The notes under the pieces: generated by a model | Told to the model about the DNA's origin: nothing | The model's database searches: none | Seen by the model: only the letters and a program-made list of their open reading frames with translations | Shown here: positions 6,416-51,819 of the stretch, one piece after another | How the letters are laid out: each line of letters begins with the position of its first letter | Numbering within the stretch: position 1 is the stretch's first letter | Position numbers and translations under genes: made by a program | Assembly: GCA_049675585.1 (NCBI GenBank) | Contig: JBAUAJ010000126.1 | Location: forward strand, 1,554 to 65,553 | Direction: 5' to 3' | DNA: 64,000 bases | Source: Thermoplasmata archaeon | Lineage (GTDB): Archaea > Thermoplasmatota > Thermoplasmata > Lutacidiplasmatales > UBA184

Positions 6416-6433
6416 GTTCAACTGATATTGCAC
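6416..6433 (-). repeat. Intergenic palindrome site S1 (GTTCAA-N6-TTGAAC family)
   Basis: GTTCAA ctgata TTGCAC (1 mismatch), in the gap between 6092 and 6546. Polarity is tentative and taken from flanks (the minus strand reads gtgtGTGCAA..TTGAACgtag). Confidence 0.75.
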
Positions 6434-6545
6434 ACACTCGCACTGTCGGAGGATCGTTCAGTAACAGAACGGTAACCAGACATCGGAGATTACAGGCTCC
6501 CTTAATCAACCCGCGGCCGCCTCTATTCTCTGCGAGGCACGCATA

Positions 6546-6935
6546 ATGTCGAAGTGGCATGGAGTTGCAGATGTGAAGGAGCTTCCCCAGGGGTCGATGA
6601 AGGGCTTCGACGTGGCCGGTGCGAAGGTAGTCTTGGTCCACGGGACATCAGGGATTCGAGCATTCGAGGATCGGTGCGGGCACATGTCCGCCCCCATCAG
6701 CATCGGCTCGTACAAGTCGGGTGTTATCAAGTGCGAGCTCCACGCCGCAGCATTCGACGCGGAGACCGGATCTGTCCGAGGACAGCCCCAGATGCACATG
6801 CCGGCGGCCCAACTTCCGCCGGAAATGCTCGAAGCGATGGCCAAGATGGGACAGATCATGTCCCAGATTCGCTGCGAGCCTCTTCGGCCGTATCCGGTTG
6901 CGGTGGAAGGCGGCCAAGTGAAGGTCTACATCTAG
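6546..6935 (+). CDS. Rieske [2Fe-2S] domain ferredoxin-like protein
   Basis: 129 aa with CxH (DRCGHMS) and CxxH (KCELHAA) ligand motifs at Rieske-like spacing. Confidence 0.8.
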   Translation: MSKWHGVADVKELPQGSMKGFDVAGAKVVLVHGTSGIRAFEDRCGHMSAPISIGSYKSGVIKCELHAAAFDAETGSVRGQPQMHMPAAQLPPEMLEAMAKMGQIMSQIRCEPLRPYPVAVEGGQVKVYI

Positions 6936-6983
6936 AGACCGTCCGTCCCGCCGTCGAGGGGGGATCACCCCCTCGCACCCTAC

Positions 6984-7262
6984 TCAGTGCGGGGGGGTCG
7001 AAGTCGAAGGGACCGCTTGTTTCCCCGCCTTTGCCTGCTTGGGGAAGTATCGGTAGACGAGGTAGGCGAGAATGGCAACGTAGATGATCACGCCTCCGAC
7101 GATCGCGATCGCAACGTTTTCCCAAACACGGGAAGTTCCGACGTCCTGGATGTACCCAAGAAGTCCGGAGAGGACTACTGTAAAGACGATCCCAAGAGCA
7201 ATCTGAAGCGTGCTGGGACGACGTCGGTAGAACACGACGGAGATGAGCCCTGGTAGAATCAT
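6984..7262 (-). CDS. Small membrane protein (3 predicted TM helices)
   Basis: 92-aa ORF with three hydrophobic stretches (LQIALGIVFTVVLSGLLGYI, VAIAIVGGVIIYVAILAYLVY). No recognisable family. Confidence 0.5.
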   Translation of the reverse strand: MILPGLISVVFYRRRPSTLQIALGIVFTVVLSGLLGYIQDVGTSRVWENVAIAIVGGVIIYVAILAYLVYRYFPKQAKAGKQAVPSTSTPPH

Positions 7263-7328
7263 TCGTGTCCGCAGCGCCGAGAACCTACTAAACAGGGATG
7301 GGCAGATTGTGGAGCGACGCCGGGGCGC

Positions 7329-8003
7329 TCATTTGACGGAGACGTTGAAGGCTCCGTCCCGGAAGTCGTCGCGCGGACCAGTGGGAACGGTCGGTCTCTC
7401 CGGCGGGATGCGGCGCGGGCGCGGTGACTGAGCTAGCCAGAACTCTCGCGCCAAAGACTCCCCGCGGAGGGTCAACGAGTAGACCTTGATCCGGCGATCC
7501 CCTCCGAACACATGGCGGCGGGTTACCTCGATAGCTCCTCCGGCGGTGAGTCGGCGCAACACCTTCGACAGGGCGCTCTGTTCCGCGCCGAGGGCCGTTC
7601 CGATTCCGCGCTGAGTGGCTTCAGGTCTTCCGATGCCATCGGGCCCCACTCGACCGAGCTCGAACAGGTGAAGGAGTATTCGTCGGGAGAGTCGCACCTG
7701 CTCTACGGGGGCACGCACTGCGTCGGATTCTATTGGGACCCGCAGAAGGAGCGCCGGATCGGTCGAAGTCTGTACTTCGCTTCCTGGACCCGAGGGGCTC
7801 GCCGACCCGGATGGGGAGCTTCGGCCCTCCCCTCCCGACGATGGCCTGGCAGAGGTCTCGGAAAACACACCGGCAGGCGGATCCGGCGTCCCGAGGCGGG
7901 CCGATCCCTTCTCGCGAACATATCGGACCGCGGCCCGGCCCCCCAAGACCGCGGCGGCGCCTACCGCGAGCCCAATCAGGAATTGCTCGACCGCGAACGC
8001 CAC
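7329..8003 (-). CDS. Membrane-anchored winged-helix (MarR/ArsR-like) DNA-binding protein
   Basis: N-terminal TM helix, an S/P/G-rich linker, and a C-terminal wHTH-like segment (LSKVLRRLTAGGAIEVTRRHVFGGDRRIKVYSLTLRGESLA). Confidence 0.55.
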   Translation of the reverse strand: MAFAVEQFLIGLAVGAAAVLGGRAAVRYVREKGSARLGTPDPPAGVFSETSARPSSGGEGRSSPSGSASPSGPGSEVQTSTDPALLLRVPIESDAVRAPVEQVRLSRRILLHLFELGRVGPDGIGRPEATQRGIGTALGAEQSALSKVLRRLTAGGAIEVTRRHVFGGDRRIKVYSLTLRGESLAREFWLAQSPRPRRIPPERPTVPTGPRDDFRDGAFNVSVK

Positions 8004-8075: not shown

Positions 8076-9737
8076 TCACTTCTTGGGCCGAACCTGTTGC
8101 TCGAGCGACCGCAAGAGCCGACCTCCGTCCTCCCTTTCGAGGCGGCGAGAGCGTACGCCGGCTCCGATCGTCCACGCACCTGCGATGAGCACACCGACGG
8201 TCCCTCCGAGGATGGCCGCAGCCAAGTCCGGCGAGAGCAGGGGACTCGGCCCCGAGCCATGTACTAGCCCGCTGGGAATCGACACTGACACCACCTCCGG
8301 GGCACGGACCAGGGCCAGCTCTCCCCCCGACACGGGGATCAGCGTATGACCCGCATTGATTACTCCGAATTCGTAGGTGTAGTTACCGGGTGGCACCACG
8401 AACAGAACTGAAGTGCCTGACGACTTTCTTACCGCGTCCGCCACGCTCACTTGCCACTCGTAACCCGATGGAAGTTGCCCTTGGGCCTCAAATGTGACCC
8501 ACGTGGGGGCGTACGCCCAAGTATCGTGGCCGTAGACTCCGTAGGACTCACTCGCCGAGGCGACGAGCTCCCCCCCGAAGAGAATCTGCTGGTGCGTGGC
8601 CGGATCGTCGAAAAATAGGGAAAGGAACCGCGCCTCGGGCGCTGTGATGTTCGCTTCAGAGACCAGGGTCCAGCCCCCGGCAGAGAATCCCCAGACCTCG
8701 TCCCCCGAGACCTGGCACCCCCCCGCAGACCCGTTCTGCATCCCCTCGTAGTACAGCGTTACATTCGCTTGGGAGTCGTACCAGATTGTCCCAATTCCGG
8801 GAGGGGGCGATGCGTTCGGCCCCAGCAACTCCGACCAGCCGTCCGTGCCGAAGGTCCAGGTCGACGCCCAAGCAGTGTCGAACGTTACAAAGGGGCAGGG
8901 CCCGCCACTACCCGGCGAGACGAAGGTAAACCCCCCGGCGAGCACGACGTATCCGTCCACGGCGTCGTATGCCATTTGTGAACGCATCAGACGGCCGGGC
9001 GGAGCGAGCCCGGAAGAGGAGGTGATGTTCAGCCAGTTACTGCCGTCGAAAGTCCATGTATCGTTGTAGAAAACAAATCCGGTGAAGGTCCCCGCGGGGA
9101 TGTTACCGATCCCCCCGCCAAACAGGACGAGCTCACCCAAGGCTGGGTCGAAAACCAGTCCGAAGTAGTAGCGGGGAGAAGGGGCGGCCGATGTCGGCAG
9201 TTGATGCCAACCGGTCTCGTTGTAAGTCCAGGTATCATTGAAGAAGGTGGTATCGTTGCGCCCGCCGAAGAGCACGAGTGACTTCATCGCGGGGAAGTAG
9301 ACCATCGCACCGCCCCACCGGGGTGCTGGGCCGCCCGACGCGGAGAGTTCGGTCCAGCCGACGTTCGTATATTCCCATGTGTCGCCGAGCGGGTAGTTGC
9401 CTCCCGCTCCGTTGTACCCTCCAAACAGGATCGTCGCGTTCAGTTCGGGCGAGTAGGCGGCCTGGGACGCCGACCGGTTGCTGGGCGCGGCGGCGAGTTC
9501 GTTAGAAATGTTGTCCCATGAAGTTCCGGCGGGGGACACGGCGGAGCCGGCGCTCGGATGGTCTATCGATACGCTCGCAGCCCCGGCGGCAGACGTCGAC
9601 GGACGTTCGCCCAGGATAAGCAGACCAGATACCATTAGAATCGCACTAACGACGATCGCACCAGCGTAGCGTCCGAACTGGGTCCGACGATGGGTCCGTT
9701 CACCAGCAGCAACCCACAGAGACTTGATCCCTAGCAT
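8076..9737 (-). CDS. Kelch-repeat beta-propeller surface protein with C-terminal anchor
   Basis: 553 aa with an N-terminal TM. Kelch-like blades repeat (ILFGGYNGAGGNYPLGDTWEY, LVLFGGRNDTTFFNDTWTY, LVLFGGGIGN...YNDTWTF). One GLP-type module is present (WVTFEAQGQLPSGYEWQV...PPGNYTYEF). A C-terminal TM helix is followed by a basic tail. Confidence 0.8.
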   Translation of the reverse strand: MLGIKSLWVAAGERTHRRTQFGRYAGAIVVSAILMVSGLLILGERPSTSAAGAASVSIDHPSAGSAVSPAGTSWDNISNELAAAPSNRSASQAAYSPELNATILFGGYNGAGGNYPLGDTWEYTNVGWTELSASGGPAPRWGGAMVYFPAMKSLVLFGGRNDTTFFNDTWTYNETGWHQLPTSAAPSPRYYFGLVFDPALGELVLFGGGIGNIPAGTFTGFVFYNDTWTFDGSNWLNITSSSGLAPPGRLMRSQMAYDAVDGYVVLAGGFTFVSPGSGGPCPFVTFDTAWASTWTFGTDGWSELLGPNASPPPGIGTIWYDSQANVTLYYEGMQNGSAGGCQVSGDEVWGFSAGGWTLVSEANITAPEARFLSLFFDDPATHQQILFGGELVASASESYGVYGHDTWAYAPTWVTFEAQGQLPSGYEWQVSVADAVRKSSGTSVLFVVPPGNYTYEFGVINAGHTLIPVSGGELALVRAPEVVSVSIPSGLVHGSGPSPLLSPDLAAAILGGTVGVLIAGAWTIGAGVRSRRLEREDGGRLLRSLEQQVRPKK

Positions 9738-10017
9738 CGCTCCTGATTTGGCGGACTGGTTGATAAACCTCGGGCGATTTTATGACGGAGATATGCCATT
9801 CGGGCCACCGATTCTAGGTTCTAACCACGCTGAACATAACGCTCACTTCTTCCGTCGATCAGCATCCGTCCGCCGACCTGGGTCTAGGCAACATTCTAGG
9901 TTGCCCCCAAGTGTTAATTTGGCCCCGAAACCAGAGAAATCTACGAAATGGGCTAGTCCGGTACTGCCTCATTGTGATGATTTAGAGGGCGCCGCAATCG
10001 AAGGATAGAAAACAATG

Positions 10018-10035
10018 GTTCAATGCTCCTTGAAC
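10018..10035 (-). repeat. Intergenic palindrome site S2
   Basis: GTTCAA tgctcc TTGAAC, exact. It lies between the kelch gene start (9737) and the end of 10176..10739. Confidence 0.9.
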
Positions 10036-10809: not shown

Positions 10810-11913
10810 TCAGCGCGGGAGGGGCAGGCGCTTCCCGTCCACCTCGAACCCTGCGCCTGCGACGATGGCCCAGCCGAAGAGATTCGACTTGTTCTTCCCG
10901 CCGAGGAATTGATTCGATCCCACGGAAACCATGATGGCGCCGGCTTCCAGATCCTCGACCTGCGGCGTGTTGTGTAGCATCGGATTGAGACCGATTCCCA
11001 GCTGTCCCGGCTGGTCCCGGCCCTTGCCACCCTTCTTGAAATCTGCCTCGAATTTGTCCCCGCCGGACCCAAAGGTTGCGCTGGTGAGACGTCCGTTCGC
11101 GAACTCGAAGCGAGGCTCTGTGGCCACTCGATCATCGTAGTAGTTCGTCCGGTTTCCCACCAGGACCCCGTCGGCGATGGATTCATTCAAGGCGACCCGC
11201 ACCGATCCCGCAGGTAGGGTCGTTAACATCCGGAATGGGAGCTTGAGGTCGGCCTCGCTCAAACGGCCCGTGTTCGCTACAGGGTTCCGACCGGATAGTC
11301 CCAGGGTGAGGTCGGTCCCGTTGTCGTGAGTGATGTGGATCCGCTTGCCTGACTTCAACGCCTTGACTATTGGCGCTGCGGTCCTAGCCAGAGTCGCTGG
11401 GTCCACCATCGTTCCCTCGAGGATGTCGTGCGTCCAACCTTCGAGGTCTACCCCGTAGGCTTTGGCGAGGCTCGGGTACGCTCGCCCCAGCTCCAGCCGC
11501 GCTCCGCGCAATCCCGCCTTCATGGCCGTGCCGTACCATGATTCGTTCCACGTAAACAGCTGGTTCGACTCTTTCGTGGGCAACGCATTCAGACGCACCC
11601 TGTCGCCCGGGCCCCACATGTGAATGTAGACGTCGGTCTTTGCTAGGGACGCCCACTCATGCGCCGGCTTTTGGCCCAGTAACTTCGCTCCGCCGCTTTC
11701 GACGGTGTCCCAGTAGGCGTTCTCGTCTTCGTAGTGGATAACCGGGAGGGCCTTCATCCGACGAACTTCCCGGGCCAATGCGACCGCCCATGGAAGGGTA
11801 TGCGTCCACGCCTCGATGGTGACATTTTCTCCGGGCTTCACCTGGAGATTGTTGCGGAGAATCGATCGCGCGAGCCTGGAACGGGCATCCGATGCGGGGG
11901 GGGTCTTCGCCAT
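10810..11913 (-). CDS. Peptidase M29 (aminopeptidase T/AmpS-like) family protein
   Basis: 367 aa. The N-terminal pattern ARSILRNNLQVKPGENVTIEAW...ALAREVRRMKALPVIHYED and the overall length fit COG2309/M29. It is a paralog of 53134..54231. Confidence 0.75.
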   Translation of the reverse strand: MAKTPPASDARSRLARSILRNNLQVKPGENVTIEAWTHTLPWAVALAREVRRMKALPVIHYEDENAYWDTVESGGAKLLGQKPAHEWASLAKTDVYIHMWGPGDRVRLNALPTKESNQLFTWNESWYGTAMKAGLRGARLELGRAYPSLAKAYGVDLEGWTHDILEGTMVDPATLARTAAPIVKALKSGKRIHITHDNGTDLTLGLSGRNPVANTGRLSEADLKLPFRMLTTLPAGSVRVALNESIADGVLVGNRTNYYDDRVATEPRFEFANGRLTSATFGSGGDKFEADFKKGGKGRDQPGQLGIGLNPMLHNTPQVEDLEAGAIMVSVGSNQFLGGKNKSNLFGWAIVAGAGFEVDGKRLPLPR

Positions 11914-13921: not shown

Positions 13922-13939
13922 GTTCAACGCTCCTTGCGC
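13922..13939 (-). repeat. Intergenic palindrome site S3 (degenerate)
   Basis: GTTCAA cgctcc TTGCGC (2 mismatches). The flanks and spacer closely resemble S2/S6 (minus-strand reading: ctgtGCGCAAggagcgTTGAACcc). Confidence 0.6.
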
Positions 13940-14805: not shown

Positions 14806-14823
14806 GTTCAAGCTCGACTGAAC
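14806..14823 (-). repeat. Intergenic palindrome site S4
   Basis: GTTCAA gctcga CTGAAC (1 mismatch). The minus strand reads GTTCAG tcgagc TTGAACcc. It lies between the TA operon start and the GNAT gene end. Confidence 0.75.
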
Positions 14824-15567: not shown

Positions 15568-15585
15568 GCTCAATTCAGCTTGAAC
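15568..15585 (-). repeat. Intergenic palindrome site S5
   Basis: GCTCAA ttcagc TTGAAC (1 mismatch). The minus strand reads tgtGTTCAA gctgaa TTGAGCcc. It sits in the divergent gap 15484-15661. Confidence 0.75.
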
Positions 15586-17252: not shown

Positions 17253-17445
17253 CCCCCCTCGAGACCCAGCGAGCGGAGCAATTCTCGCGCCCGTTTGGTC
17301 GGCAATAGGCCCATTCCTAGAGCATCCGAGCCGAGTCGGCGAGCTGAGTCCAATTCATGTTGTTCGGATTTTTCGGCGGGCCACGTGTTCAAGCCCCGTC
17401 GTACCAGGTCCGACTGGCCCAATCGCGCGGGGCACCGTTGGACTC

Positions 17446-36579: not shown

Positions 36580-36597
36580 GTTCAAATCTTGTTGAAC
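36580..36597 (+). repeat. Intergenic palindrome site S20
   Basis: GTTCAA atcttg TTGAAC, exact, with 3' flank cc. Confidence 0.9.
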
Positions 36598-38696: not shown

Positions 38697-38714
38697 GCTC
38701 AAGTCTTGTTGAGT
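38697..38714 (+). repeat. Intergenic palindrome site S22 (degenerate)
   Basis: GCTCAA gtcttg TTGAGT (3 mismatches to consensus, but the spacer is nearly identical to S21). It is 43 nt after the 38654 stop, and CCTCTC/GAGAGG flank it. Confidence 0.5.
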
Positions 38715-39318: not shown

Positions 39319-39510
39319 GCTGAGCCCCTGCGAAGGCGAAAATAACGGTTCTCTTATCGCTGCCCATCAGCGCCCGATTCCAGAGGACAGGTCGCCGGGC
39401 TCCGAGTGTCTGGCGCTCCGATGGCCGAAATGGCGGGCCCCTTGGACCTAGATCTGTAGGAAGCGACCGTCGTCCATTCGCTGGGAACGGGACCTCGATT
39501 CGTTGGGTAG

Positions 39511-40478: not shown

Positions 40479-40496
40479 GTTCAACTATTGTTGAGC
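40479..40496 (+). repeat. Intergenic palindrome site S23
   Basis: GTTCAA ctattg TTGAGC (1 mismatch), with 5' flank ggt. Confidence 0.75.
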
Positions 40497-43500: not shown

Positions 43501-43602
43501 GCTGAGGATGAGCACACCAACGAAAAGGAAGAGGAACCCGCGGCGACAGGCCTGATTCCGGGCGGTCGTCCCCTTCCGATGCACCCTCGTATCCCCTCCC
43601 AC
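40597..43602 (-). CDS. Giant YVTN beta-propeller surface protein (about 14 blades) with GLP-W-NGT modules and C-terminal anchor
   Basis: 1001 aa with an N-terminal TM/signal. It has many repeats of the form P.G.AYD...GEIFVAN.GS.NVSVI. The C-terminus has VSFAETGLPMATTWSV, YSVTLTESGLPAHTNWSV and YLVTFTESGLPATTEWWV, then a TM helix (GYLLLGAIGAVILIGIGAFLV). Confidence 0.9.
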   Translation of the reverse strand: MGGDTRVHRKGTTARNQACRRGFLFLFVGVLILSGLGLPITNLPAFRLSSFASPPLTPALAHGESGRPANLSIAESALARPAAVAAGVAPEGSLPSVSATLVLLNNTLVPGNFLAANGVSPHSVAYDPAKSEVFIANLESDSVSVISDTTDTVVATISIGSSVGGVVYDSGKGEIFTADSGVHNVSVIADSNNTVIATIPVGPDPMAMAYDGTTGQIFVADYGGDTVSVISDASNSVVKTVKVGNQPLGAAYDSGTQEIWVSTTNLSFGTAGNLSVISGSTDSVITTVGVGASPGGVAYDSAQGEIFVANLGSRNVTVVRDSVYTVAKNIGVGNNPYDVVYDGGLGDVFVSNSGSDTATVISAATNNVLATVPVGTEPLGMAYDAARAAIYTANSASNNVSVLSDVSDAVSATIPLGTSPDGLAYDRAKGEIFAADSGEGDVDVISAGTNEIVSQVKVGIGPMGLAYDRPMGEIFVADYGSGAVSVINDTSDHVVATVHVEGEPSQLAFDPHTRQVFVTTFLGDDVSVISDATDDVVANIAVGTEPQGIAYDPLDGEMFVSNLGSENISVISDATDTVTGSFFETGGYALAYDGPNGELFAANNGLGKVQVLSSTTGNSIANVSVGTGPQAVAYDRATGEVDSVNSGSNNVSVVSYVTDAILATLSVGSDPNSIAVDTTTGLVYVCDFGQGTISILTPGHPVPNPVSFAETGLPMATTWSVVLNGSSQASSARADNFTEPNGSYSYSVPSVGEYVPTISAGSLSVASDAIRILLSFDLVYSVTLTESGLPAHTNWSVTLTGSASSIILSVVSVTRWSDGHASVNFSASNGSYTYTVKSDDSSYSASSGALLVNGADLSQPVSFELVTYLVTFTESGLPATTEWWVNISGEVPLSSVGAAASIALPNGSYTYTTASANRNYSATGGGFTVTGGTIDRAVTFQSNAHNPGSAAPTLLGLPATEGYLLLGAIGAVILIGIGAFLVRRSKGGSAPPPSTSDQDPK

Positions 43603-43657
43603 CTGGCTTGAGGTGGAGTGTGTCGGACGGGCGTGCCCTTATTGAGCCTTCGGAGAA

Positions 43658-43707
43658 CGGGACTCGAATTCGAACCCCGCTCGAGCGATGTTCGGTTTCG
43701 GCCGAAA
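43658..43707. other. Cluster of perfect palindromes upstream of the 43602 start
   Basis: TCGAATTCGA (43664-43673), CGCTCGAGCG (43678-43687) and TTTCGGCCGAAA (43696-43707). The first extends to the imperfect 20-mer GGGACTCGAA/TTCGAACCCC. Confidence 0.6.
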
Positions 43708-43734
43708 ATCACCTCTGCGAGACTTCAGCGGTAG

Positions 43735-43752
43735 GTGCCACCCTCGTTGAAC
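43735..43752 (+). repeat. Intergenic palindrome site S24
   Basis: GTGCCA ccctcg TTGAAC cc (2 mismatches), preceded by gtag. Confidence 0.6.
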
Positions 43753-43845
43753 CCGGAACACCTGCTGCCGATGAGGCTGGATCCGTACAGACTTTCTCTT
43801 CTCGGGAGATTGGCCGATCTCCGACTTCAGGAACAGGTGCGCGTA

Positions 43846-44190
43846 CTATGCCAACTCGAGGACCAGGCGATTCGCCTTCTCCGGCGAGACGAGAACTTCC
43901 TGGCCACTTTTCATCTTGAGGTAGCGTGCGAGAGAGGAGGGAATCCTCACTACAAGTGAATTGCCCGATCGGGCGATTTTGACCTTCGAAGCGAGCCCCC
44001 ACAGACCCAGCTCTTTGGCCTTCTGCTCAACCTTGTGCATGCTCTCACTGCTCAGGAACGACTCTCCGCATCGATCACACACTTCGCCGGGATATTTTCC
44101 GAGGTCAACGCCGAACATCTCCTCGTGCACGGTACCGGGACGAAGGGTCCCTTTGCCACATACAGGACACCGCGATACCACGGTCACCAC
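43846..44190 (-). CDS. Zinc-finger (YgiT/MqsA-type) + AbrB/SpoVT-domain antitoxin
   Basis: 114 aa with CPVCGKG...CDRCGES, then KVKIARSGNSLVVRIPSSLARYLKMKSGQEV. Confidence 0.65.
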   Translation of the reverse strand: MVTVVSRCPVCGKGTLRPGTVHEEMFGVDLGKYPGEVCDRCGESFLSSESMHKVEQKAKELGLWGLASKVKIARSGNSLVVRIPSSLARYLKMKSGQEVLVSPEKANRLVLELA

Positions 44191-44399
44191 CTCGGTTTCA
44201 CCGTAATGACGTAAGTCCGACTGCGCCGGACGACGTAAACGACCTCGAAGTACCGATAGGCGGACGCAACTTTACCGCCCTGGTGAGTCTTAGACCCCAG
44301 TTGGATTGCAATCTCGACCTCCGCCGTCGAGATTCCGCGGAGCACCTTCCTTTGGCGAGCATGACGGCTACAGACGACCTCCCTGGCCATCCAATACAT
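44184..44399 (-). CDS. DUF4258-like toxin
   Basis: 71 aa with SRHARQRKVLRGISTAEVEIAI..G....GGKV...RYFEVVYVV...TYVITV. It overlaps the downstream antitoxin by 7 nt. Confidence 0.6.
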   Translation of the reverse strand: MYWMAREVVCSRHARQRKVLRGISTAEVEIAIQLGSKTHQGGKVASAYRYFEVVYVVRRSRTYVITVKPRW

Positions 44400-44512
44400 G
44401 TATTACTCGTATTACTATTAGGATGCCGTCTCCCGGCTCGGCTCGAGAGTGGAGTTAGCGTAGCAGGTCCCTCTATGCGGGTGCTACATTGGGATGCCAA
44501 GCAGATTCCGTA

Positions 44513-44530
44513 GGCCAACTCTCATTGAAC
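44513..44530 (+). repeat. Intergenic palindrome site S25
   Basis: GGCCAA ctctca TTGAAC ct (2 mismatches), preceded by cgta. Confidence 0.6.
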
Positions 44531-44604
44531 CTCTCCCGGAGGCCGACCGCTATCGCCGGAACCGAGTCGGACAGATGCCGTCCGATTTCACGTCCGGGGG
44601 AGGA

Positions 44605-45048
44605 CTACTTCCGCCCGCGAGCAGCAGCAGCCTTTGCAGCCAGTGCCGCGAACTCTTCCCGGCCGAACGCAGTTCCGGACAACCCCCAGCCCCCTTCCGC
44701 GGCTTCGGTGAGCAGCACCCAGGTTCGACTAGCCTGTGTCGGATCACCTGAGATCCGAGTTACGATCTCTGTAACTTCGTTGACGAGCTGCTTCTGACCC
44801 TCTCGATTCAGAGCCGCGGGCGGAGTGATAATCTGGACACGCACAGTGCGAGCGGAGTCGGTAGCAGCCGTGTGGACCGTTTTGGGATCCATACGATGAA
44901 TGTACGCGGCGGTGTTGTTCGTGTGAAATGGTCCTGGAGCTACCACTCCTTCTGCCCGGAGGACCGCCCTGGTTAGTTCCTCTGCGAGTTTCCGGTCCGT
45001 TCCCGCGGGGAAGAGGTCGGCCGCGGCGTAGACGTCAATCATCGGCAT
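44605..45048 (-). CDS. Tautomerase-superfamily protein
   Basis: 147 aa starting MPMIDVY (Pro1 after Met removal), with two beta-alpha-beta-like halves (RTVRVQIITPP...). Confidence 0.65.
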   Translation of the reverse strand: MPMIDVYAAADLFPAGTDRKLAEELTRAVLRAEGVVAPGPFHTNNTAAYIHRMDPKTVHTAATDSARTVRVQIITPPAALNREGQKQLVNEVTEIVTRISGDPTQASRTWVLLTEAAEGGWGLSGTAFGREEFAALAAKAAAARGRK

Positions 45049-45137
45049 TGTGTTCTCCCTTTCACGCGCTATATGGGTCCAGCTTTAGAGATTTCGGTTT
45101 CTGCCTACTCTCGAGTAAGTGCAATCAACGAAGGTGC

Positions 45138-45155
45138 GTGCAGTTCTGATTGAAC
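45138..45155 (+). repeat. Intergenic palindrome site S26
   Basis: GTGCAG ttctga TTGAAC (2 mismatches), 90 nt beyond the 45048 start. Confidence 0.6.
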
Positions 45156-45326
45156 TCACGCGTGCCCGCGCAAGCGACATCCGTTCGAGCGGTCGGAGGC
45201 AGCCCACCCTGCCCCACTCCATCGTAAATTCAAGAGGCCGAATCGAATCGACGCCCGGGATGTTCAACGTAGTTAAATGAGAAACCTTACGTATAGGTAA
45301 GTTATCCATTCAAGAAGAGCCGAATC

Positions 45327-45773
45327 ATGCTGACCCTCGAAATCCCGCAGCTCCATTGCTACCGATGCGGGAACACATGGACCCCCCGAGGGCGGATAGT
45401 CCGCATCTGCCCGCGTTGCAAGTCCCCGAAGTGGGAAGAGCCAAAAATCGTGGTCCCCGAGGGGGGAGGGGGCCTCGGGGTGGAGGCGGTTCTCGGCCCC
45501 TACCGGTCAAGAATCAAGCGAATCGCGAAGCAGTACGGCGCACGAGAGATACGTGTATTCGGCTCTGTGGCTCGGAACGCGGCCAGCTCGAGGAGTGATA
45601 TCGATCTGCTCGTGGACTTTGATCAGTCCAAACGTTCAAAATCCGCCCTGCGCTCGATCGACCTCGCGCTCGAACTGGAAAAGCTCCTGGGCCGCCATGT
45701 CGACCTGGTAACAGAGAGCAGTCTGCATTGGTTCATTCAACCGCAAGTTGTGGTAGAGGCGGTCCCACTGTGA
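45327..45773 (+). CDS. Zinc-ribbon + minimal nucleotidyltransferase (MNT) antitoxin
   Basis: 148 aa with CYRCGNTW...CPRCKS, then VFGSVARNAASSRSDIDLLVDF. Confidence 0.75.
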   Translation: MLTLEIPQLHCYRCGNTWTPRGRIVRICPRCKSPKWEEPKIVVPEGGGGLGVEAVLGPYRSRIKRIAKQYGAREIRVFGSVARNAASSRSDIDLLVDFDQSKRSKSALRSIDLALELEKLLGRHVDLVTESSLHWFIQPQVVVEAVPL

Positions 45774-46129
45774 CAACCAAGACGGATCGAGATCGCCTTC
45801 GCGTTACGGCGATGATCCAGGCTGCGGAGGAGGCGAAGCTTGATGCCGCGGTGGGGAAAGAAGAGTTCCTCGAAGGTGGCCGCTCTCAGAAGGCCGTACT
45901 ACTGGATCTAATTCACCTCACAGAGTCCGCCGACAAAGCATCGCTCGGGCTGAAGAAGCTCAATCCCAGGATTCCGTGGGAGCGGCTGAATGGGCTACGA
46001 AATCGTGGACTCGTCCACCACTATGCTGAAATTGACCTAGAGGAAGTATGGGCATTCGTCCGAGACGACATGTCTCGCGTTCGACGCCAACTCGATCATG
46101 TGAAGTTCCCTCGGGACGACGCTCGCTGA
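45770..46129 (+). CDS. HEPN (DUF86) toxin
   Basis: GTG at 45770 overlaps the MNT stop (GTGA). It has LNGLRNRGLVHHYAEID, the DUF86 RN..H.Y-type motif. The track start at 45728 is considered too early. Confidence 0.75.
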   Translation: MTTKTDRDRLRVTAMIQAAEEAKLDAAVGKEEFLEGGRSQKAVLLDLIHLTESADKASLGLKKLNPRIPWERLNGLRNRGLVHHYAEIDLEEVWAFVRDDMSRVRRQLDHVKFPRDDAR

Positions 46130-46172
46130 GCTCAGAGCGCTAAGCGAGGCCGCCGTAGCGATTGCGCTGTAG

Positions 46173-46190
46173 GTTCAATCCTCGTTGAGC
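46173..46190 (+). repeat. Intergenic palindrome site S27
   Basis: GTTCAA tcctcg TTGAGC ct (1 mismatch), preceded by gtag, 44 nt after the 46129 stop. Confidence 0.75.
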
Positions 46191-46356
46191 CTTGGGCAGG
46201 TCGGGTCAGGGGGTCGGACCCAGGACCGGGACTAACGGCTCTTCGCTGCGAGCGTAAGCGCCCGAGGGGCCCGCCGACAAGGCGGCGCTAAAAATCTGGG
46301 TACGGGGACCGGCCGTTGATCGGGCTCCCGCAGAATCGAGTGCGATCGGCGAATTC

Positions 46357-47445
46357 CTAGGTGATAGTGATGGTCCCGGCCATGTATCCCTTAACGCCCA
46401 TGGGGGGGCTCGTGTAGGGGTTGGTTCCCGCCCCACAAGGGGCCATACAGAACCACGAGACCTTCCCCGCGGACAGGAGTAGAACCGTGAATCGAACGAC
46501 CGTCATCCCCGGGCTGTAGATCGAGAGACCCAACGCGGGAACATTGAATGTGTGGGCCACATCGCTCGCATTGACGACGTGGGCGGGTGTGCCGTTGATG
46601 TATTCGATGTCGCCCGGGGTACCGGTAACCACACAACCGCAACCGCTCCAATTCATCGGCATATCCTCGTCAGTGATAGTGAAAATCACCTCTCCCGTCG
46701 GGAGGGTGAAGTTGGCGGGGGAGTACTGCGGCCACCCATTGACGGAGTTGATGGAGACCGTGAGATTCTCGTAGGCCGGGACGATCGGACCCGGAGTCGT
46801 CGATCCGGTGTTCGACGGGAGCGACACCACCAAGCCGGCTCCAATCCCGAAAGCGAGGACGATTCCGACCACGAAGTAAACGGCGAACATCCGCAGGTTG
46901 ACGCTCCCCGCCCAGAATCCCGAAGGGGTCGGTCGGGGTCGACTGGACAGCGAGGCCCGGAAGCGCGCGATCGCCAGCGCAATCCACTGATCGGCCGAGA
47001 GCGCCTGACCCGCCCCGCCGAACACCAGGACCATGTAGATCAGCAGGTAGAGCGGGTGCTCGCCCACGTCCGTGCCTCCGGGGAACACAAACGTACTTCC
47101 GACCTGCGTTCCGAGAAGGAGAGCCGAGAATATTCCGCCGAAAAGACACGCCAACCGGGTGGTCAATCCGAGGAGGAAGGCCACCGCAAGATACGCGGTA
47201 AGCAGGGCCACGATCCACGAAAAGATCACCGCATTGGACGCGACGAAATTCGCTAGCGCCGGACCGCCGAGCGTCGTCGGCGCGAATGAGCGTGCGGTCT
47301 CCGCGAAATTACCGAAGTATTGGTTCGCGGGATCCACGATGAAGAGGAGGTTCACGGCCCAGACGACGCCGACGCCAATTCGAAGGATCTCGATTGTACG
47401 CGAGATCCGTCGGCTGGCGTCAACCTTGGGCCCGGGGTCGAACAT
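46357..47445 (-). CDS. DoxX/DoxD-like membrane domain fused to a C-terminal cupredoxin-like domain
   Basis: 362 aa. The N-terminal 4-5 TM region is paralogous to 47499..48134 (RIGVGVVWAVNLLF...GGTDVGEHPLYLLIYMVLVFGGAG). The C-terminus reads PANFTLPTGEVIFTITDED...HTFNVPALGL...FCMAPCGAG...MGVKGYMAGTITI. Confidence 0.7.
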   Translation of the reverse strand: MFDPGPKVDASRRISRTIEILRIGVGVVWAVNLLFIVDPANQYFGNFAETARSFAPTTLGGPALANFVASNAVIFSWIVALLTAYLAVAFLLGLTTRLACLFGGIFSALLLGTQVGSTFVFPGGTDVGEHPLYLLIYMVLVFGGAGQALSADQWIALAIARFRASLSSRPRPTPSGFWAGSVNLRMFAVYFVVGIVLAFGIGAGLVVSLPSNTGSTTPGPIVPAYENLTVSINSVNGWPQYSPANFTLPTGEVIFTITDEDMPMNWSGCGCVVTGTPGDIEYINGTPAHVVNASDVAHTFNVPALGLSIYSPGMTVVRFTVLLLSAGKVSWFCMAPCGAGTNPYTSPPMGVKGYMAGTITIT

Positions 47446-47498
47446 GTTCCTTTCGTGCCCGGCGGCTCACCGGCCCATAAGGAGTCGGTGAAACGGGG

Positions 47499-48134
47499 TT
47501 GACGGTGGGTGAATCTATGCGGCGGGAGAGCGATCGTCCGCGGATGGCGTCTCAAAGCGATGTCGCAGGATCCCCCTCGCGCGATGATTCTACTCGAGTT
47601 TCGAGTAGCGCTCAGGATGGGTCCGACGATTCGCCCTCGGACCGCCGGCCGTTGGCAATCGAGGCGCTGCGCATCGGAATGGGGGCGATCTGGGCATTGA
47701 ACATGATCTTCGTCCTGTATCCGGCGAATCAGTTCTTTCCGACGTTCCAATCGACTGCCGCCTCCTTCGGTCCGACCAGCCTTGGTGGGCCGGGCGGAGC
47801 GAACTTCGTCGCGTCACATTCGCTGTTGTTCGCGTGGGTGACCGCGGTACTCACCGCCTATCTCGCCATCGCATTCCTGGTGGGGTTCACGACTCGTTTA
47901 GCGTGCCTGGTCGGAGCGTTGGCGTCCCTCGCCTTCCTTGTCACCCAGTTCGCGACGACCTTCCAGGCTCCCGGCGGAACGGATGTCGGGCCTCACCCGC
48001 TGTATCTCCTGATCTATCTGATCTTGTTTCTCGGCGGAGCCGGCCGCTACTTCTCGGTGGACCGGCGAATATGGGCGTCGAAATCGCAAAGGCTCCCCCG
48101 CTTGTCGCGGTGGATGGCCACTGCGCACCGTTGA
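47499..48134 (+). CDS. DoxX/DoxD-like membrane protein
   Basis: 211 aa with LRIGMGAIWALNMIFV...GGTDVGPHPLYLLIYLILFLGGAGRYFSVD. It is a divergent neighbour and paralog of 46357..47445. Confidence 0.65.
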   Translation: MTVGESMRRESDRPRMASQSDVAGSPSRDDSTRVSSSAQDGSDDSPSDRRPLAIEALRIGMGAIWALNMIFVLYPANQFFPTFQSTAASFGPTSLGGPGGANFVASHSLLFAWVTAVLTAYLAIAFLVGFTTRLACLVGALASLAFLVTQFATTFQAPGGTDVGPHPLYLLIYLILFLGGAGRYFSVDRRIWASKSQRLPRLSRWMATAHR

Positions 48135-48353
48135 GGAACCTCGTCACGAGTGGGGCGATTGACCCTCAACGTGCTTGACAGAACGTCAGCCAATCGGGTG
48201 GCACGAGAGAGAGTGGGCCAGAGGCCGCAACGGCTGGAGCTCAGTCCGTCGTCGCTTTGGCCCCGCTCGACGGCTGGCGACCCTCGGATGGGGAACCCTA
48301 CGGGGGCAATGCCTAACTGATGCCGACGCTCCGGTTCAGCGGCTTGGTGTGTC

Positions 48354-48797
48354 GTGACGGGTGACTTTCAGATCGTCATTGATTGCTCCGATCCGAATCT
48401 GTTAGCGCACTTTTGGGCGGACGCGCTTGGTTACCAAATCCAAGGTCCTCCGCCGGGGTTCGCCTCGTGGAAAGAATACTGGATCAGCCGGGGAGTGCCT
48501 GCGTCGGAAGCTGGTGAAGGCGATGATCGGATCAGCGACCCCAGCGCACGAGGTCCGTCCGTCTGGTTCCAGCGGGTCGAAGATCGAAAGTCAATCAAGA
48601 ATCGGATCCACCTCGACCTCCGTGCGAGCGGCCGCGACGAGGTCCCCTTCGCGATTCGACGGCAGCGAGTAGAGGCCGAGGCCGCCCGACTCGTGTTGCT
48701 CGGCGCTACAAAGATCGGGGCGCTAGAATCGGGGGTAGTAGACCATTACGCGGTGGCGATGACCGATCCTGAGGGGAATGAGTTTGACATCAACTAG
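48354..48797 (+). CDS. VOC/glyoxalase-like domain protein
   Basis: 147 aa with FQIVIDCSDPNLLAHFWADALGY ... IHLDL ... YAVAMTDPEGNEFDI. Confidence 0.7.
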   Translation: MTGDFQIVIDCSDPNLLAHFWADALGYQIQGPPPGFASWKEYWISRGVPASEAGEGDDRISDPSARGPSVWFQRVEDRKSIKNRIHLDLRASGRDEVPFAIRRQRVEAEAARLVLLGATKIGALESGVVDHYAVAMTDPEGNEFDIN

Positions 48798-48828
48798 ATC
48801 CGCCGAATCGGCGCTCTGCCCTGAATAG

Positions 48829-48846
48829 GCTCAACTAGTGTTGCAC
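48829..48846 (+). repeat. Intergenic palindrome site S28
   Basis: GCTCAA ctagtg TTGCAC cc (2 mismatches), 32 nt after the 48797 stop. Confidence 0.6.
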
Positions 48847-48875
48847 CCAGACGCGGGCACGCCGAGGGGAATCGC

Positions 48876-49088
48876 CTACCCTCGTGTTCTCTTCGTTCCG
48901 AGAAGATGGATTCCCGAGGACGGGCCGCCCCCAAGGACGGCGCCGCACCATCCACAGTAGATCATTGAATAAATCGAACCGATGGAGATCCCTTCATAGA
49001 GCACATCCGTCGAGGGATTGATCTGATGCTTACAAAACGGGCAAAATGGAGTTGGGCTCGCTTCTGACGTGTCTTGAGTTCCGATCAT
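48876..49088 (-). CDS. Small Cys-rich (CxxC...CxxC) hypothetical protein
   Basis: 70-aa ORF with FCPFCKH ... YCGWCGA. No other support. Confidence 0.35.
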   Translation of the reverse strand: MIGTQDTSEASPTPFCPFCKHQINPSTDVLYEGISIGSIYSMIYCGWCGAVLGGGPSSGIHLLGTKRTRG

Positions 49089-49233
49089 CTGCCAGGATCG
49101 GCAGTCGAAGCCTCAGGCGACTGTAGCCCCGGTGGAGCGGAGGGTCTGGTTGAGACTGGGTCGATTCATTTCTGCCCTTTCGGCGGGCAGGCGACTCGGC
49201 GGCCGGCGGCTTCCCGGACAGAGCACCGAAGGG

Positions 49234-49557
49234 CTACTTGGAAGGCTTACGCTTCGGAGGCGATACTGCGTGGCTTCCCCTCTTGGCCGGGCCACTGCGG
49301 ATCACGCGAACGTTGACGTCTGCCTTGAATCGCCGTACCTCGAGACGGGAACCTTGGGCGTGCAACGCCTTTAGGAAGGTCTCCACCTCTACCGCCGGGC
49401 CGTCTCGCCACTTGGCGACGAAAAGCGATGAACCCTGTTGGCCAGGGATAGCCAGACCGCTTCCGACCAGTTGACGGAAGTCTGTGTCTGACAGCGCCTC
49501 GAACGGCGTTGCCAACATCTCGCCTCGGCGGGGATAGCTCTGCTTGATTTTCTTCAT
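49234..49557 (-). CDS. Hypothetical protein
   Basis: 107-aa ORF with mixed composition (MKKIKQSYPRRGEMLATPFEALSDTDFRQLVG...). It competes with overlapping ORFs. Confidence 0.35.
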   Translation of the reverse strand: MKKIKQSYPRRGEMLATPFEALSDTDFRQLVGSGLAIPGQQGSSLFVAKWRDGPAVEVETFLKALHAQGSRLEVRRFKADVNVRVIRSGPAKRGSHAVSPPKRKPSK

Positions 49558-49745
49558 ACGCTTGATCCGAACAGAAACCCACAGCTACGCAAGTCACTAC
49601 GGATGACTCTGAAGACAGCGAACACGGATAACGGTCCGCCCTCCCCGCGCCCCCGCCAGGATCGAGACTGCGACCCCAGGTCAGAACCTCGCTTCGATCC
49701 GAGAGATGAGCGGGTGGGTCTGGGGGAGGCGTTCCCGCGCATCCT

Positions 49746-49763
49746 GCTCAACGGAGGATGAGC
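49746..49763. repeat. Possible degenerate palindrome site S29
   Basis: GCTCAA cggagg ATGAGC (3 mismatches to consensus; the arms are self-complementary apart from A/T). Confidence 0.35.
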
Positions 49764-50024
49764 TCAGAGCTGTCAGCGCCTGCTGGTGCAGGATGCTTTC
49801 TTCCCGATCCGGCATCTAGCCCCGGACCGTCAACCACGATATCCATTGGGTCTCGCGCACTCCTCCAGACCGAAACATCGGATCCAGGAGTTGCACCCAG
49901 CGTCGGTCCGCGGTTCTCGGCGGGCCAGCCCGAGCCGTTCTTAGCAAGTTGTCCGGGGTGAGTTCTGCCGTGTTACGCCATAGCAAGATACTTAGCGCTC
50001 GGACCGATACGGGTCCCCGGAACC

Positions 50025-51677
50025 GTGTCCGGCGCGTCCGCCCTCTCGATCACAGTAGTGGTGTGTCTCGCTCTGCTCATGATTCCCACGGCCTCTTCGC
50101 CTGGAAGCGCGCTAACTATCTCACACGATGGCGCTGCCCCGGCCGTCTCCCTTCGGCCGGCGGTAGCGTACTCGGTCACCTTTACGGAAAGCGGTCTGCC
50201 CTCAGGAACGAGCTGGTCCGTGGATCTCGGCTCCCTCGTAGGCAACTCTTCCGGGGACGCCGTAAGCTTCGACCTATCCAATGGGACATTCCCCTTCTCA
50301 ATACCTGCCGTCCCGTCGCCCACGGGAGGAGAGATGGGTTGGGCCTCCGCTCCGGGGTCGGGCAGCATTTCTGTGACCGGGAACCCGGTCGGCGTTACGT
50401 TGGTCTTCGGGCCGATCCCGGTCTACAAGCTCGAATTCGAGGAATTCGGCGGGCCGGCCAACCAGACGTGGTCCGTCACCATCGGCACTCAGACCTTGAC
50501 GAACATCATCTACGCCCATTGTATCACGTGCGGGCTGGTCGGATCCGTGACCTTCGCCGAACCGGCTGGAATCCTGAACTTTGCGATTTCTCCGCCCGCC
50601 CACTACGGTGTCGTGAAGGTCATCCGTCTGCTCCCTTGCGCAGGGACGCTCCTCGGTTCTAGCGCGCTGGACCTAACCCAAAACTGCGACCTGGGGGTTT
50701 ATTTCGGGGAGGATCTCTCGTACTCATTCTCCCAGGCCACTATTCCGAAGTTTGAACTCTACCCCGGCGCGATCTGGTCGGTCTCCCTTCTCCCGGCGCA
50801 ATCGGCGGGCGGGCCGACCGAACAGTTCAACGCCTCGAGCGGGAGCTCGATCGGGTTCATGCTTCCTCGAGGAGCGGTCTACAAGTACATCGTGACCGGC
50901 CCCCGTCCAGAATACCAGGCCTCCCCCGCGAAAGGAGAGATTCGCGTCAGCGCTAGCTCAGGACTTCAGCAGCTAACGGTGAAGTTCAAGCTGCTCACCT
51001 CCAACGTAATTTTCATGGAGAGCGGACTCGCGCGGGGTACGATCTGGAACGTGACGATCCTGGCGGGGACCTCGCCCGCAGTAACCTACCCATTTGGGGA
51101 GGCATCCCCCGGACCTATTCAGCTCCTATTCCACCTACCTGCGGGGACCTATGTATGGGTCGCCAGCGTGCCGGGATCCTCCATCGCTCCCGTCTCCGGA
51201 ACCCTAGTCGTGAGCCACCCATCGAGGGCGACCCACGTCGTCGTCCCATTCTCGCAGTCCGCAGCGGCGGCGGGGTGCTTCTTCTTTACGACCAGCGGCG
51301 CGCCCGTGGGGGCCGTGGAGTGCAATCCGAACGCCAATGATATCCTGGTGAACTTCACCGAACTGCCGGGCGCGGTCTGTGCGAATCAGTTCACGCTCGG
51401 GGGCGCGAGCGACGGACCGGCGCAGGTGTGCCCGACCGGCGCAAACCAGTTGGAGGTCTCTTGGACGGACTCGGCGATGGGCCCGGTGATCTCGTCGTGC
51501 TACTGGGCCGTCAGCGGGGTGGTGATCGGAACGTGCCCCGTGCCGTCGCCTGCACCCACTGGATTCGTGCTGTACCTTGCCGACATCTCCTCCGTCAGCT
51601 GGACAGTCGATGGTGCGGTCGTAGGATCCCCCATCCCCGCGCCTGCAGTGGCTAACGGAGTGGAATTCTTCCTCTGA
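50025..51677 (+). CDS. Secreted surface protein built of GLP-W-NGT modules
   Basis: 550 aa with a signal peptide (ITVVVCLALLMIPTASS). It has YSVTFTESGLPSGTSWSV, YKLEFEEFGGPANQTWSV, VIFMESGLARGTIWNV and ...LPAGTYVWV. Confidence 0.8.
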   Translation: MSGASALSITVVVCLALLMIPTASSPGSALTISHDGAAPAVSLRPAVAYSVTFTESGLPSGTSWSVDLGSLVGNSSGDAVSFDLSNGTFPFSIPAVPSPTGGEMGWASAPGSGSISVTGNPVGVTLVFGPIPVYKLEFEEFGGPANQTWSVTIGTQTLTNIIYAHCITCGLVGSVTFAEPAGILNFAISPPAHYGVVKVIRLLPCAGTLLGSSALDLTQNCDLGVYFGEDLSYSFSQATIPKFELYPGAIWSVSLLPAQSAGGPTEQFNASSGSSIGFMLPRGAVYKYIVTGPRPEYQASPAKGEIRVSASSGLQQLTVKFKLLTSNVIFMESGLARGTIWNVTILAGTSPAVTYPFGEASPGPIQLLFHLPAGTYVWVASVPGSSIAPVSGTLVVSHPSRATHVVVPFSQSAAAAGCFFFTTSGAPVGAVECNPNANDILVNFTELPGAVCANQFTLGGASDGPAQVCPTGANQLEVSWTDSAMGPVISSCYWAVSGVVIGTCPVPSPAPTGFVLYLADISSVSWTVDGAVVGSPIPAPAVANGVEFFL

Positions 51678-51801
51678 TCTCCTTACCCTGCCGCCGACTT
51701 CCGCGCCGAGACCTCCGTGGGCGCGCCGTGAGGATTGAGTCTCGGCCGATCATAGGCACAAGGGACCCGCTTAGGAACCTCTATGGATCTGAACAAAGGG
51801 T

Positions 51802-51819
51802 GTGCAATTGACGTTGAAC
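51802..51819 (+). repeat. Intergenic palindrome site S30 (last copy seen)
   Basis: GTGCAA ttgacg TTGAAC cc (1 mismatch), with 5' flank ggt. It is 125 nt after the 51677 stop. Confidence 0.75.

Follow-up and report, generated by a model that had tools for sequence, protein, structure and literature searches.

A site-bounded array of gene modules in a soil Thermoplasmata archaeon looks like an archaeal counterpart of integrons and dif modules

Integron cassettes are mostly promoterless, co-oriented single open reading frames (ORFs) that are expressed from Pc. The attC sites are imperfect palindromes, R''-L''...L'-R', that are recombined as folded single strands, and attI adjoins the integrase gene, with the newest cassettes next to it. 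Here, we describe a 64-kb stretch of the genome of a Thermoplasmata archaeon (GenBank assembly GCA_049675585.1, contig JBAUAJ010000126.1, positions 1,554 to 65,553), called the window, in which about 30 gene modules are bounded by copies of a short palindrome, GTTCAA-N6-TTGAAC. A preliminary description, based on the sequence of the window, had proposed that these copies are recombination sites that delimit self-contained modules. We consider it probable that the region is a mobile-module array with a dedicated XerA-like recombinase and a 24-bp duplex core site. It looks like an apparently undescribed archaeal counterpart of bacterial integrons and dif modules, and a full-text search of the literature found no description of such a system.

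The locus and its relatives share with integrons a co-oriented array of sites that splits small accessory-gene cassettes, toxin-antitoxin cassettes among them, a tyrosine recombinase at one end, 5' of whose gene strains differ at a putative attI-like junction, a cassette pool common to several genomes, and the existence of arrays without an integrase. In contrast, the site here is a symmetric 24-bp site of the duplex type, whereas attC is a folded site of 57-141 bp with extrahelical bases. The integrase is XerA-like and without the IntI-specific domain, and the cassettes have their own promoters, lie in both orientations and are often multi-gene. Published archaeal integrons are canonical IntI/attC systems (PMC9668308).

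The pdif modules of Acinetobacter plasmids, which depend on XerC/XerD (PMC6449649, PMC13141974), are also self-contained modules with their own promoters, toxin-antitoxin modules included, that are shuffled between replicons and flanked by short sites of the Xer type, whose spacer is 6 bp long, and their recombinase need not be linked. However, pdif is an asymmetric 28-bp site (11-6-11, with a XerC arm and a XerD arm) in alternating orientation around modules. The arms here are symmetric, the sites are co-oriented, a single recombinase is implied, the setting is chromosomal and archaeal, and many arrays have beside them a dedicated paralogue with an attI-like site, which makes this paralogue, and not the housekeeping Xer, the candidate enzyme. 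The pdif analogy drawn in the preliminary description is therefore not supported in detail. The archaeal XerA/dif system (PMC2958812; PDB 4a8e, 5hxy) provides the closest structures and the best family match to the integrase, and its site also has inverted arms, a 6-bp spacer and a homodimer per site. Unlike the sites described here, of which tens cluster, XerA acts at one dif per chromosome, and dif does not lie beside xerA; the enzyme here also falls far below the XerA cut-off and forms clades with different arm specificity. REP/RAYT elements are likewise short intergenic palindromes in many copies, some with GTAG-like flanks, but the sites here are clustered instead of dispersed, show no hairpin covariation, have an asymmetric spacer, are linked to a tyrosine recombinase and are accompanied by no RAYT gene seen in the window. 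Functionally, the system resembles integrons and dif modules, and it lacks the defining features of both.

Sites and modules of the window

The exact palindrome was found seven times in the window, compared to 0.01 copies expected from dinucleotide shuffles of the window. With up to two mismatches allowed, there were 29 copies (7 exact, 11 with one mismatch and 11 with two), compared to a mean of 1.34 and a maximum of 5 in the shuffles. The preliminary description had listed the same seven exact copies and likewise 11 with one mismatch, but only seven with two. All pattern matches are confined to positions 6416-51819. One two-mismatch match, at 25819, falls within a gene for a 751-aa FG-GAP protein (25191-27446) and is probably a chance match, one of the approximately 1.3 expected. 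A 24-nt position weight matrix (PWM) trained on the 28 intergenic matches added four intergenic sites (29000, 33485, 38697 and 17348), and scanning 1-6400 and 51900-64000 with it gave no sites, in keeping with the earlier statement that copies are absent outside approximately 6.4-51.8 kb. Finally, a decayed site at 39408-39425 was exposed by comparison with locus L024 (comparison loci from metagenome assemblies are labelled with L and a number). This brings the total to about 32 sites, each intergenic relative to the genes supported by codon usage, so the intergenic placement reported before stands. The sites, the array and two gene features are as follows (coordinates; strand, with a dot where none is assigned; feature; basis).

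6416-51819; +; whole cassette array, about 32 sites and 30 modules; GC 0.55-0.62 vs 0.65-0.67 in right flank
6416-6433;.; site GTTCAActgataTTGCAC, left array end, hybrid arms; 1 mismatch, PWM 24.7
9818-9835;.; site GTTCTAaccacgCTGAAC; 2 mismatches, PWM 20.9
10018-10035; +; site GTTCAAtgctccTTGAAC; exact, PWM 23.2
13922-13939; +; site GTTCAAcgctccTTGCGC; 2 mismatches, PWM 23.4
14806-14823;.; site GTTCAAgctcgaCTGAAC; 1 mismatch, PWM 20.8
15568-15585; +; site GCTCAAttcagcTTGAAC, between divergent genes; 1 mismatch, PWM 27.5
17348-17365; +; weak site GTCCAAttcatgTTGTTC, doublet with 17387; PWM 13.1
17387-17404; +; site GTTCAAgccccgTCGTAC, between convergent genes; 2 mismatches, PWM 15.3
19837-19854; +; weak site GTTCCAtttcgcTAGAAC, first of triplet; 2 mismatches, PWM 10.6
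19865-19882; +; site GTTCAAccctccTTGAAC; exact, PWM 29.5
19935-19952; -; site GTTCAAgcatgaTTGAAC, purine-rich spacer; exact, PWM 26.1
22126-22143;.; site GTTCAAattcgaTTGTAC; 1 mismatch, PWM 26.0
22788-22805;.; site GTTCAAtcacgaTTGAGC; 1 mismatch, PWM 24.8
23549-23566; -; hybrid site GTGCAAgaggcgTTGAAC, G-type left arm, T-type right arm; 1 mismatch, PWM 25.1
24742-24759; -; site CTGCAAggggcgTTGAAC; 2 mismatches, PWM 19.5
29000-29017; +; site GTGCAAttctcaTTGTGC, missed at up to 2 mismatches; PWM 21.6
29682-29699; +; site CTACAAttcctgTTGAAC; 2 mismatches, PWM 25.1
31520-31537; +; site GTTCAAttcttgTTGAAC, closest to consensus; exact, PWM 34.9
32420-32437; +; site GTTCAAcccttcTTGAAC; exact, PWM 24.9
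33485-33502; +; site GTCCATctcttgTTGTAC; PWM 18.7
34721-34738; +; site GCTCAActcctgTTGAAC; 1 mismatch, PWM 27.6
35894-35911; +; site GTTCAActctcgTTGAAC; exact, PWM 28.9
36580-36597; +; site GTTCAAatcttgTTGAAC; exact, PWM 31.9
37541-37558;.; site GCTCAAgacttgTTGAAC; 1 mismatch, PWM 22.6
38697-38714; +; weak site GCTCAAgtcttgTTGAGT; PWM 13.8
39408-39425; +; decayed site GTCTGGcgctccGATGGC, DinB/methyltransferase junction; homology to L024 DinB cassette
40479-40496; +; site GTTCAActattgTTGAGC; 1 mismatch, PWM 26.7
43735-43752; +; site GTGCCAccctcgTTGAAC; 2 mismatches, PWM 23.8, kept in strain L018
44513-44530; +; site GGCCAActctcaTTGAAC; 2 mismatches, PWM 14.1, kept in L018
45138-45155; +; site GTGCAGttctgaTTGAAC; 2 mismatches, PWM 22.6, kept in L018
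45327-46129; +; Zn-ribbon-MNT and HEPN toxin-antitoxin cassette; Pfam, homologues and contexts
46173-46190; +; site GTTCAAtcctcgTTGAGC, 3' of HEPN, between convergent genes; 1 mismatch, PWM 25.7
48829-48846;.; site GCTCAActagtgTTGCAC, hybrid arms; 2 mismatches, PWM 23.5, kept in L018
51802-51819;.; site GTGCAAttgacgTTGAAC, right array end, 1.3 kb 5' of M29 gene, hybrid arms; 1 mismatch, PWM 24.8
53134-54231; +; M29 aminopeptidase gene flanking the array; orthologues in L004 and L006

The sites lie between convergent gene pairs (17387 and 46173), a divergent pair (15568) and tandem pairs alike and, therefore, mark module boundaries as opposed to promoters or terminators. A promoter or operator role is ruled out for 17387 and 46173 by their position between convergent genes. 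The approximately 30 modules that the sites bound have genes on both strands (about 11 on + and 16 on -), keep 70-470 nt of 5' space each, often hold two or three genes and reach 4.7 kb. Co-oriented doublets and triplets of sites 28-83 bp apart (17348/17387; 19837/19865/19935) form 'empty' mini-cassettes, and similar ones are found in L004, L016, L024, L029, L040 and L048. Such clusters may have been left behind by lost cassettes or may be part of the architecture.

The full site is a 24-bp, 9-6-9 palindrome, TGK-GTTCAA-TTCYYG-TTGAAC-MCA, in which the extension of the arms to 9 bp (TGK...MCA) is weak. Outside the hexamers, complementarity has dropped to background by the third or fourth base and, therefore, there is no attC-like extended hairpin. 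At arm position 3/16 we counted 17 T/A, 5 G/A, 3 T/C and no G/C pairs, with no compensatory changes. These uncompensated variants argue for half-sites that are read by a protein. The preliminary description had also found that the half-sites do not co-vary and had preferred a protein-recognised site to a hairpin, and on both points our data agree with it. A search of Rfam at gathering thresholds gave no match. Both arms are one 9-bp sequence, inverted, which implies that one recombinase serves both. The spacer is asymmetric, with the consensus T-T-C-Y-Y-G and a last position that is never T, and site orientation was assigned by its pyrimidine content. The + strand spacer is pyrimidine-rich in 18 of the 29 strong sites and purine-rich in three; thus, the sites are mostly direct repeats. 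Over all GTTCAA-type arrays together, 39 of 54 sites have the same polarity and three the opposite one. Assigning orientation by maximising information content gave a small, overfitted gain and was dropped. An origin of the arms as terminal inverted repeats of small transposons was also rejected, since the arms are always exactly 6 bp apart and there is no transposase.

A XerA-like integrase beside related arrays

Homologues of the MNT protein led to four loci (L014, L016, L017 and L048), in each of which the MNT-HEPN pair directly follows a gene that encodes a Phage_integrase domain, and HEPN has a site on its 3' side. The position of site 46173, which is 3' of HEPN in the window, is site-occupied in L004, L016, L017 and L048 as well. 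A metagenome scan with the integrase gave 19 loci. The plain pattern GTNCAA-N6-TTGNAC, with up to one mismatch, had about 40 matches in the integrase loci, most with TGG...CCA flanks. Density was compared by counting sites at a matrix score of at least 15. The 200 kb of non-redundant integrase loci held 59 sites (15 of 20 loci had at least one), compared to 2 sites in 152 kb of control Thermoplasmata loci, 0 in the 18.5 kb of window flanks and 29 in the 45.5 kb of the window array. The density is, therefore, about 22-fold higher around integrase genes than in control loci, and the motif is clustered, with blank flanks and nearly blank controls. When other 6-N(3-9)-6 palindromes were enumerated in the control loci, no alternative repeated motif was found.

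The integrase clades are only 45-52% identical to one another, and the type of site changes with them, from GTGCAA arms in clade A to GTTCAA arms in clade B. Half-site position 3 has 95 G and 3 T in clade-A loci, compared to 1 G and 12 T in the clade-B array of L048. The counts are 10 G and 41 T in the window, 1 G and 10 T in L004, and 4 G and 17 T in L040, and they make the window array one of clade-B type. The integrase adjacent to M29 in L006 also belongs to clade B and is 71% identical to that of L048. Four sites that combine a G-type arm with a T-type arm (23549, 51802, 6416 and 48829) match, to judge from their sequences, the leftovers that would be expected of crossovers between site types; the gaggcg spacer of site 23549 recurs in the clade-A array L016 at position 245. 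In all GTTCAA-type arrays, MNT, M29 and (in L048) the integrase are encoded in the sense of the strand on which the spacer is pyrimidine-rich. From this polarity, an integrase that serves the window array would be expected on the + strand at the right end of the array, where L006 has one.

The integrase is about 300-330 aa long. Its best NCBIfam match is archaeal XerA (NF040815) at 69.4 bits against a cut-off of 220, so the equivalog threshold is not reached, and its best PDB sequence matches are XerA of Pyrococcus and of Thermoplasma. The alignment with XerA is contiguous, whereas that with IntI4 (2a3v) splits into query 114-183 on IntI4 106-173 and query 194-267 on IntI4 230-303, which indicates that about 46 IntI4 residues, the IntI-specific domain, are missing from the integrase. 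The integron-integrase model TIGR02249 scored 45 bits against a cut-off of 265. An AlphaFold model (pLDDT 82.5) had 5hxy and 4a8e, both XerA, as its top PDB matches, followed by Brujita Int, XerD, XerH and IntI4 over the whole length, and aligned over about 290 columns to XerA, XerD and XerH. Columns that are invariant among 40 homologues include R162/R163, H250-x-x-R253, H276 and Y285. Simple tyrosine recombinases have core-binding and catalytic domains, no arm-binding domain and R..HxxR..H/W..Y residues (PMC8138268), and by its sequence and predicted fold the integrase is a simple two-domain enzyme in this sense. At least 438 clusters fall into the family at E ≤ 1e-20, and 'integrase' is their only annotation. 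The geometry of the site had suggested a tyrosine recombinase beforehand, and a XerA-like member of that family is what related Thermoplasmata arrays carry.

The integrase is always paired with a toxin-antitoxin module. A VapBC (PIN) pair replaces MNT-HEPN 3' of the integrase in L023 (1765-2440), L032 and L039, and in L030 a VapBC pair lies 5' of it. MNT-HEPN homologues in L042-L044 have no sites nearby, so that the pair is not always part of an array. Searches of viral contigs and plasmids gave no indication of a viral or plasmid origin; viral contigs had one stray site match and one distant integrase, and plasmids had one integrase, 24% identical.

Junctions, proposed mechanism and rival explanations

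In several comparisons between genomes, homology stops at a site or within one. To the right of TGGGTG[T/C]AA|CAGGCA, L016 and L017 share 99.97% identity over 8.5 kb, and to the left they are unrelated. A left half-site of the cassette type opens their junction, which precedes the integrase gene by about 100-150 bp. A left half-site, 6 nt and the conserved block RCAGGCATTTCYCACGTTTCACGA follow one another in L014, L017, L023, L024, L026, L027 and L030, with a fixed distance from half-site to block and the block on the integrase-proximal side (at least seven loci). The block was not found in the window, which has no attI-like junction. Homology between L027 and L030 begins at the block-adjacent half-site, and that between L030 and L032 begins inside a site spacer. 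The DinB cassette, which ends in a site in L024, has 86% nucleotide identity between that locus and the window, and the homology spans the left arm and 4 nt of the spacer of the decayed site at 39408-39425 before it ends. Breakpoints at sites, a check proposed in the preliminary description, were thus seen between these loci, but not for the indels of strain L018 given below.

The arrays also draw on a common cassette pool. Of the 52 ORFs of the array, 21 have homologues in the 264 kb of other array or integrase loci, compared to 4 in the 168 kb of control loci. Fic, TauE, YdjM, DinB, GNAT, hydrolase and MNT-HEPN cassettes have similar site-to-gene-end distances in both genomes and different neighbours; site 37541, for example, lies 85 nt 5' of the YdjM gene, and the distance is 84 nt in the L023 copy. 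Cassette copies 5' of an integrase keep the orientation of the window in four of four cases, and copies 3' of it are mixed. The module-array proposal of the preliminary description is supported by the integrase in sister arrays, the co-variation with its clades, the half-site junction and the reordering of shared modules.

On our favoured reading, the array would consist of about 30 mobile gene cassettes split by a 24-bp double-stranded core-type recombination site, and the cognate enzyme would most likely be the dedicated XerA-like simple tyrosine recombinase found beside sister arrays in soil Thermoplasmata. Recombinase dimers would bind the two arms, two sites would synapse, and catalysis would exchange strands at the edges of the 6-bp spacer. 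Since the sites are co-oriented, recombination between two array sites would excise a circle with one hybrid site. This circle could re-enter at any site, but preferably at the attI-like junction that precedes the integrase gene by about 100-150 bp. Each cassette would bring its own promoter and, therefore, work in either orientation, and the toxin-antitoxin pair 3' of the integrase (MNT-HEPN or VapBC) probably stabilises the platform. We lean, with less confidence, toward a wider view, in which a gene-capture platform arose in soil Thermoplasmata from Xer enzymes independently of integrons. It would comprise at least three integrase clades (at least 438 clusters) with co-varying arm specificity (GTGCAA vs GTTCAA), an attI-like point, a locking toxin-antitoxin pair and arrays of up to at least 30 promoter-bearing cassettes, with the window among the largest and integrase-less.

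Several findings weigh against the mobile-array reading. The window encodes no recombinase, as had been noted in the first description: a Pfam search of its proteins found no recombinase, transposase or HUH protein, and tblastn with the integrase found no recombinase gene and no integrase pseudogene. The spacers differ between sites, and a spacer mismatch lowers efficiency in classical tyrosine recombination. Several sites are decayed (39408, 19837 and 17348), which suggests low current activity. L048 is the only clade-B integrase locus with an array that was recovered, and in L006 the integrase is present yet there are no recognisable sites. In L018, the only near-identical strain (98% identical over 42020-48883), cassettes, sites and order are unchanged, and neither of its two indels relative to the window (48884-49219 and 49681-52953) ends at a site. 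The comparative data all come from metagenome assemblies. Also, the density counts are partly circular because the second matrix was trained on integrase-locus sites, although the plain pattern count is not. The GTTCAA array of the window, without an integrase in 64 kb and with variable spacers and decayed sites, may therefore be served in trans or be largely sedentary.

Another possible explanation is that the palindromes are dif-like sites of the housekeeping chromosome-dimer resolvase XerA (compare pdif and XerC/XerD), with the integrase paralogue as an unrelated passenger. The 6-bp spacer and inverted arms are the geometry of Xer/dif, the window array has no linked integrase, and the integrase family is itself XerA-like. 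We nevertheless consider this unlikely, since the type of site changes with the clade of the integrase linked to it, the strain-level junction and the conserved attI-like block precede that integrase gene by 100-150 bp, and the density of sites is 22-fold higher in its neighbourhood.

The sites could also be REP-like or regulatory elements, such as binding sites of nucleoid, insulator or terminator proteins, that accompany accessory genes without recombination. They are short intergenic palindromes, often near gene 3' ends and some flanked by GTAG or CTAC, and the 98%-identical strain shows no reshuffling. An operator or a REP-like element had been offered as an alternative in the preliminary description. 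This is quite improbable given the empty 18.5-kb flanks and the two sites in 152 kb of control loci, the uncompensated arms with no hairpin past them, the placement between convergent, divergent and tandem genes alike, the inter-genome homology that breaks at or inside sites, and the lack of an Rfam match and of any RAYT or HUH gene seen in the window by Pfam. An integron array without an integrase (CALIN) that has unusually short attC sites would account for the co-orientation and the typical cassette cargo (toxin-antitoxin pairs, GNAT, glyoxalase, DinB), and integrons do exist in Archaea (PMC9668308), but it is very improbable because the site is 18-24 bp with no pairing beyond the arms, the genes lie in both orientations with their own promoter space, the linked integrase lacks the IntI-specific insertion (about 46 IntI4 residues) and NCBIfam IntI models score far below their cut-offs. 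The integron analogy made earlier is thus not supported at the sequence level, given the far too short site and the missing domain, and the match to the R''/R' consensus noted with it holds only if the spacer starts with C and ends with G.

If the mobile-array reading is confirmed, this would be a second, independently evolved integron-like way in which accessory genes are captured, stored and reshuffled. It would rely on a simple enzyme of the Xer type and a duplex site of only 24 bp, and be active in a widespread but uncultured group of soil archaea. The assembly of their large islands of genes for toxin-antitoxin systems, detoxification and surface proteins would then be explained. Site and integrase clade would together be a sequence signature for finding such islands in metagenomes, and the compact recombinase/site pair, with its natural specificity variants, could be of use in genome engineering. 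The origin of integron-like systems from chromosome-dimer resolvases would also become testable.

Cargo, flanks and the locus in relatives

The toxin-antitoxin-related cargo identified with Pfam consists of three RelE/ParE, PIN/VapBC, two HEPN-MNT pairs, Fic and DUF4258. The other cargo comprises a DpnI_C-HNH nuclease, small enzymes (GNAT, glyoxalase, DinB, MOSC, RibD_C, tautomerase, methyltransferase, alpha/beta hydrolase, M29 peptidase and a Rieske protein), membrane proteins and large secreted beta-propeller proteins. The window has no tRNA gene, so that repeated integration into such a gene is unlikely. That the window belongs to soil Thermoplasmata follows from the relatives of the M29 peptidase in its flank. 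Logan contigs from sample SRR28061163 are collinear with the window; look-ups with window proteins returned only these contigs, and the organism's own integrase was not found among them.

The M29 gene allowed the same locus to be compared in relatives. In L004, the M29 orthologue is 72% identical, and eight GTTCAA-type sites with the spacer polarity of the window lie 5' of it. Zn-ribbon-MNT and HEPN form the only cassette common to that array and the window. L002, L003 and L005 have an equally related M29 gene, no such array and at most one isolated matrix match each. In L006, the clade-B tyrosine recombinase gene is directly 5' of the M29 orthologue. This integrase gene (9064-9990) sits 3' of about 5.7 kb of cassette-like cargo (GNAT, AlkZ-like, GyrI-like, cupin and hydrolase genes) that is without recognisable sites and has intergenic gaps down to 10-16 bp.

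M29 aminopeptidase paralogues occur twice in the window, as an array cassette (10810-11913) and as the flank gene (53134-54231), and a copy of the cassette type, 63% identical, is found in L035 near a clade-C integrase. The site-free right flank also has two adenylate/guanylate cyclase-TPR genes (54902-56869 and 59737-61695), a homologue of which is a site-bounded cassette in L040 (7626-9879). Part of the right flank may consist of old, fixed cassettes.

Strain L018 is without segments 48884-49219 and 49681-52953, and the stretch between them (49220-49680) is only 85% identical. The segment 49681-52953 ends exactly at the stop codon of a membrane-protein gene (52951), and a perfect palindrome, TTCCCCCGGGGAA, is at 52959-52971, just 5' of M29. 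A separate rearrangement hot spot seems to lie here.

A different palindrome, CTTACGTATAGGTAAG, lies at 45286-45301, 25 nt 5' of the Zn-ribbon-MNT start. It is near-invariant in the MNT cassettes of L004, L014, L016, L017 and L018, in which overall identity is only about 70%. It is probably the promoter/TATA region and an autoregulatory operator of the toxin-antitoxin pair. Lastly, two divergent membrane-protein genes (46357-47445 and 47499-48134) have a common N-terminal domain of about 130 aa with approximately 65% nucleotide identity, an inverted duplication that had no match in Pfam.

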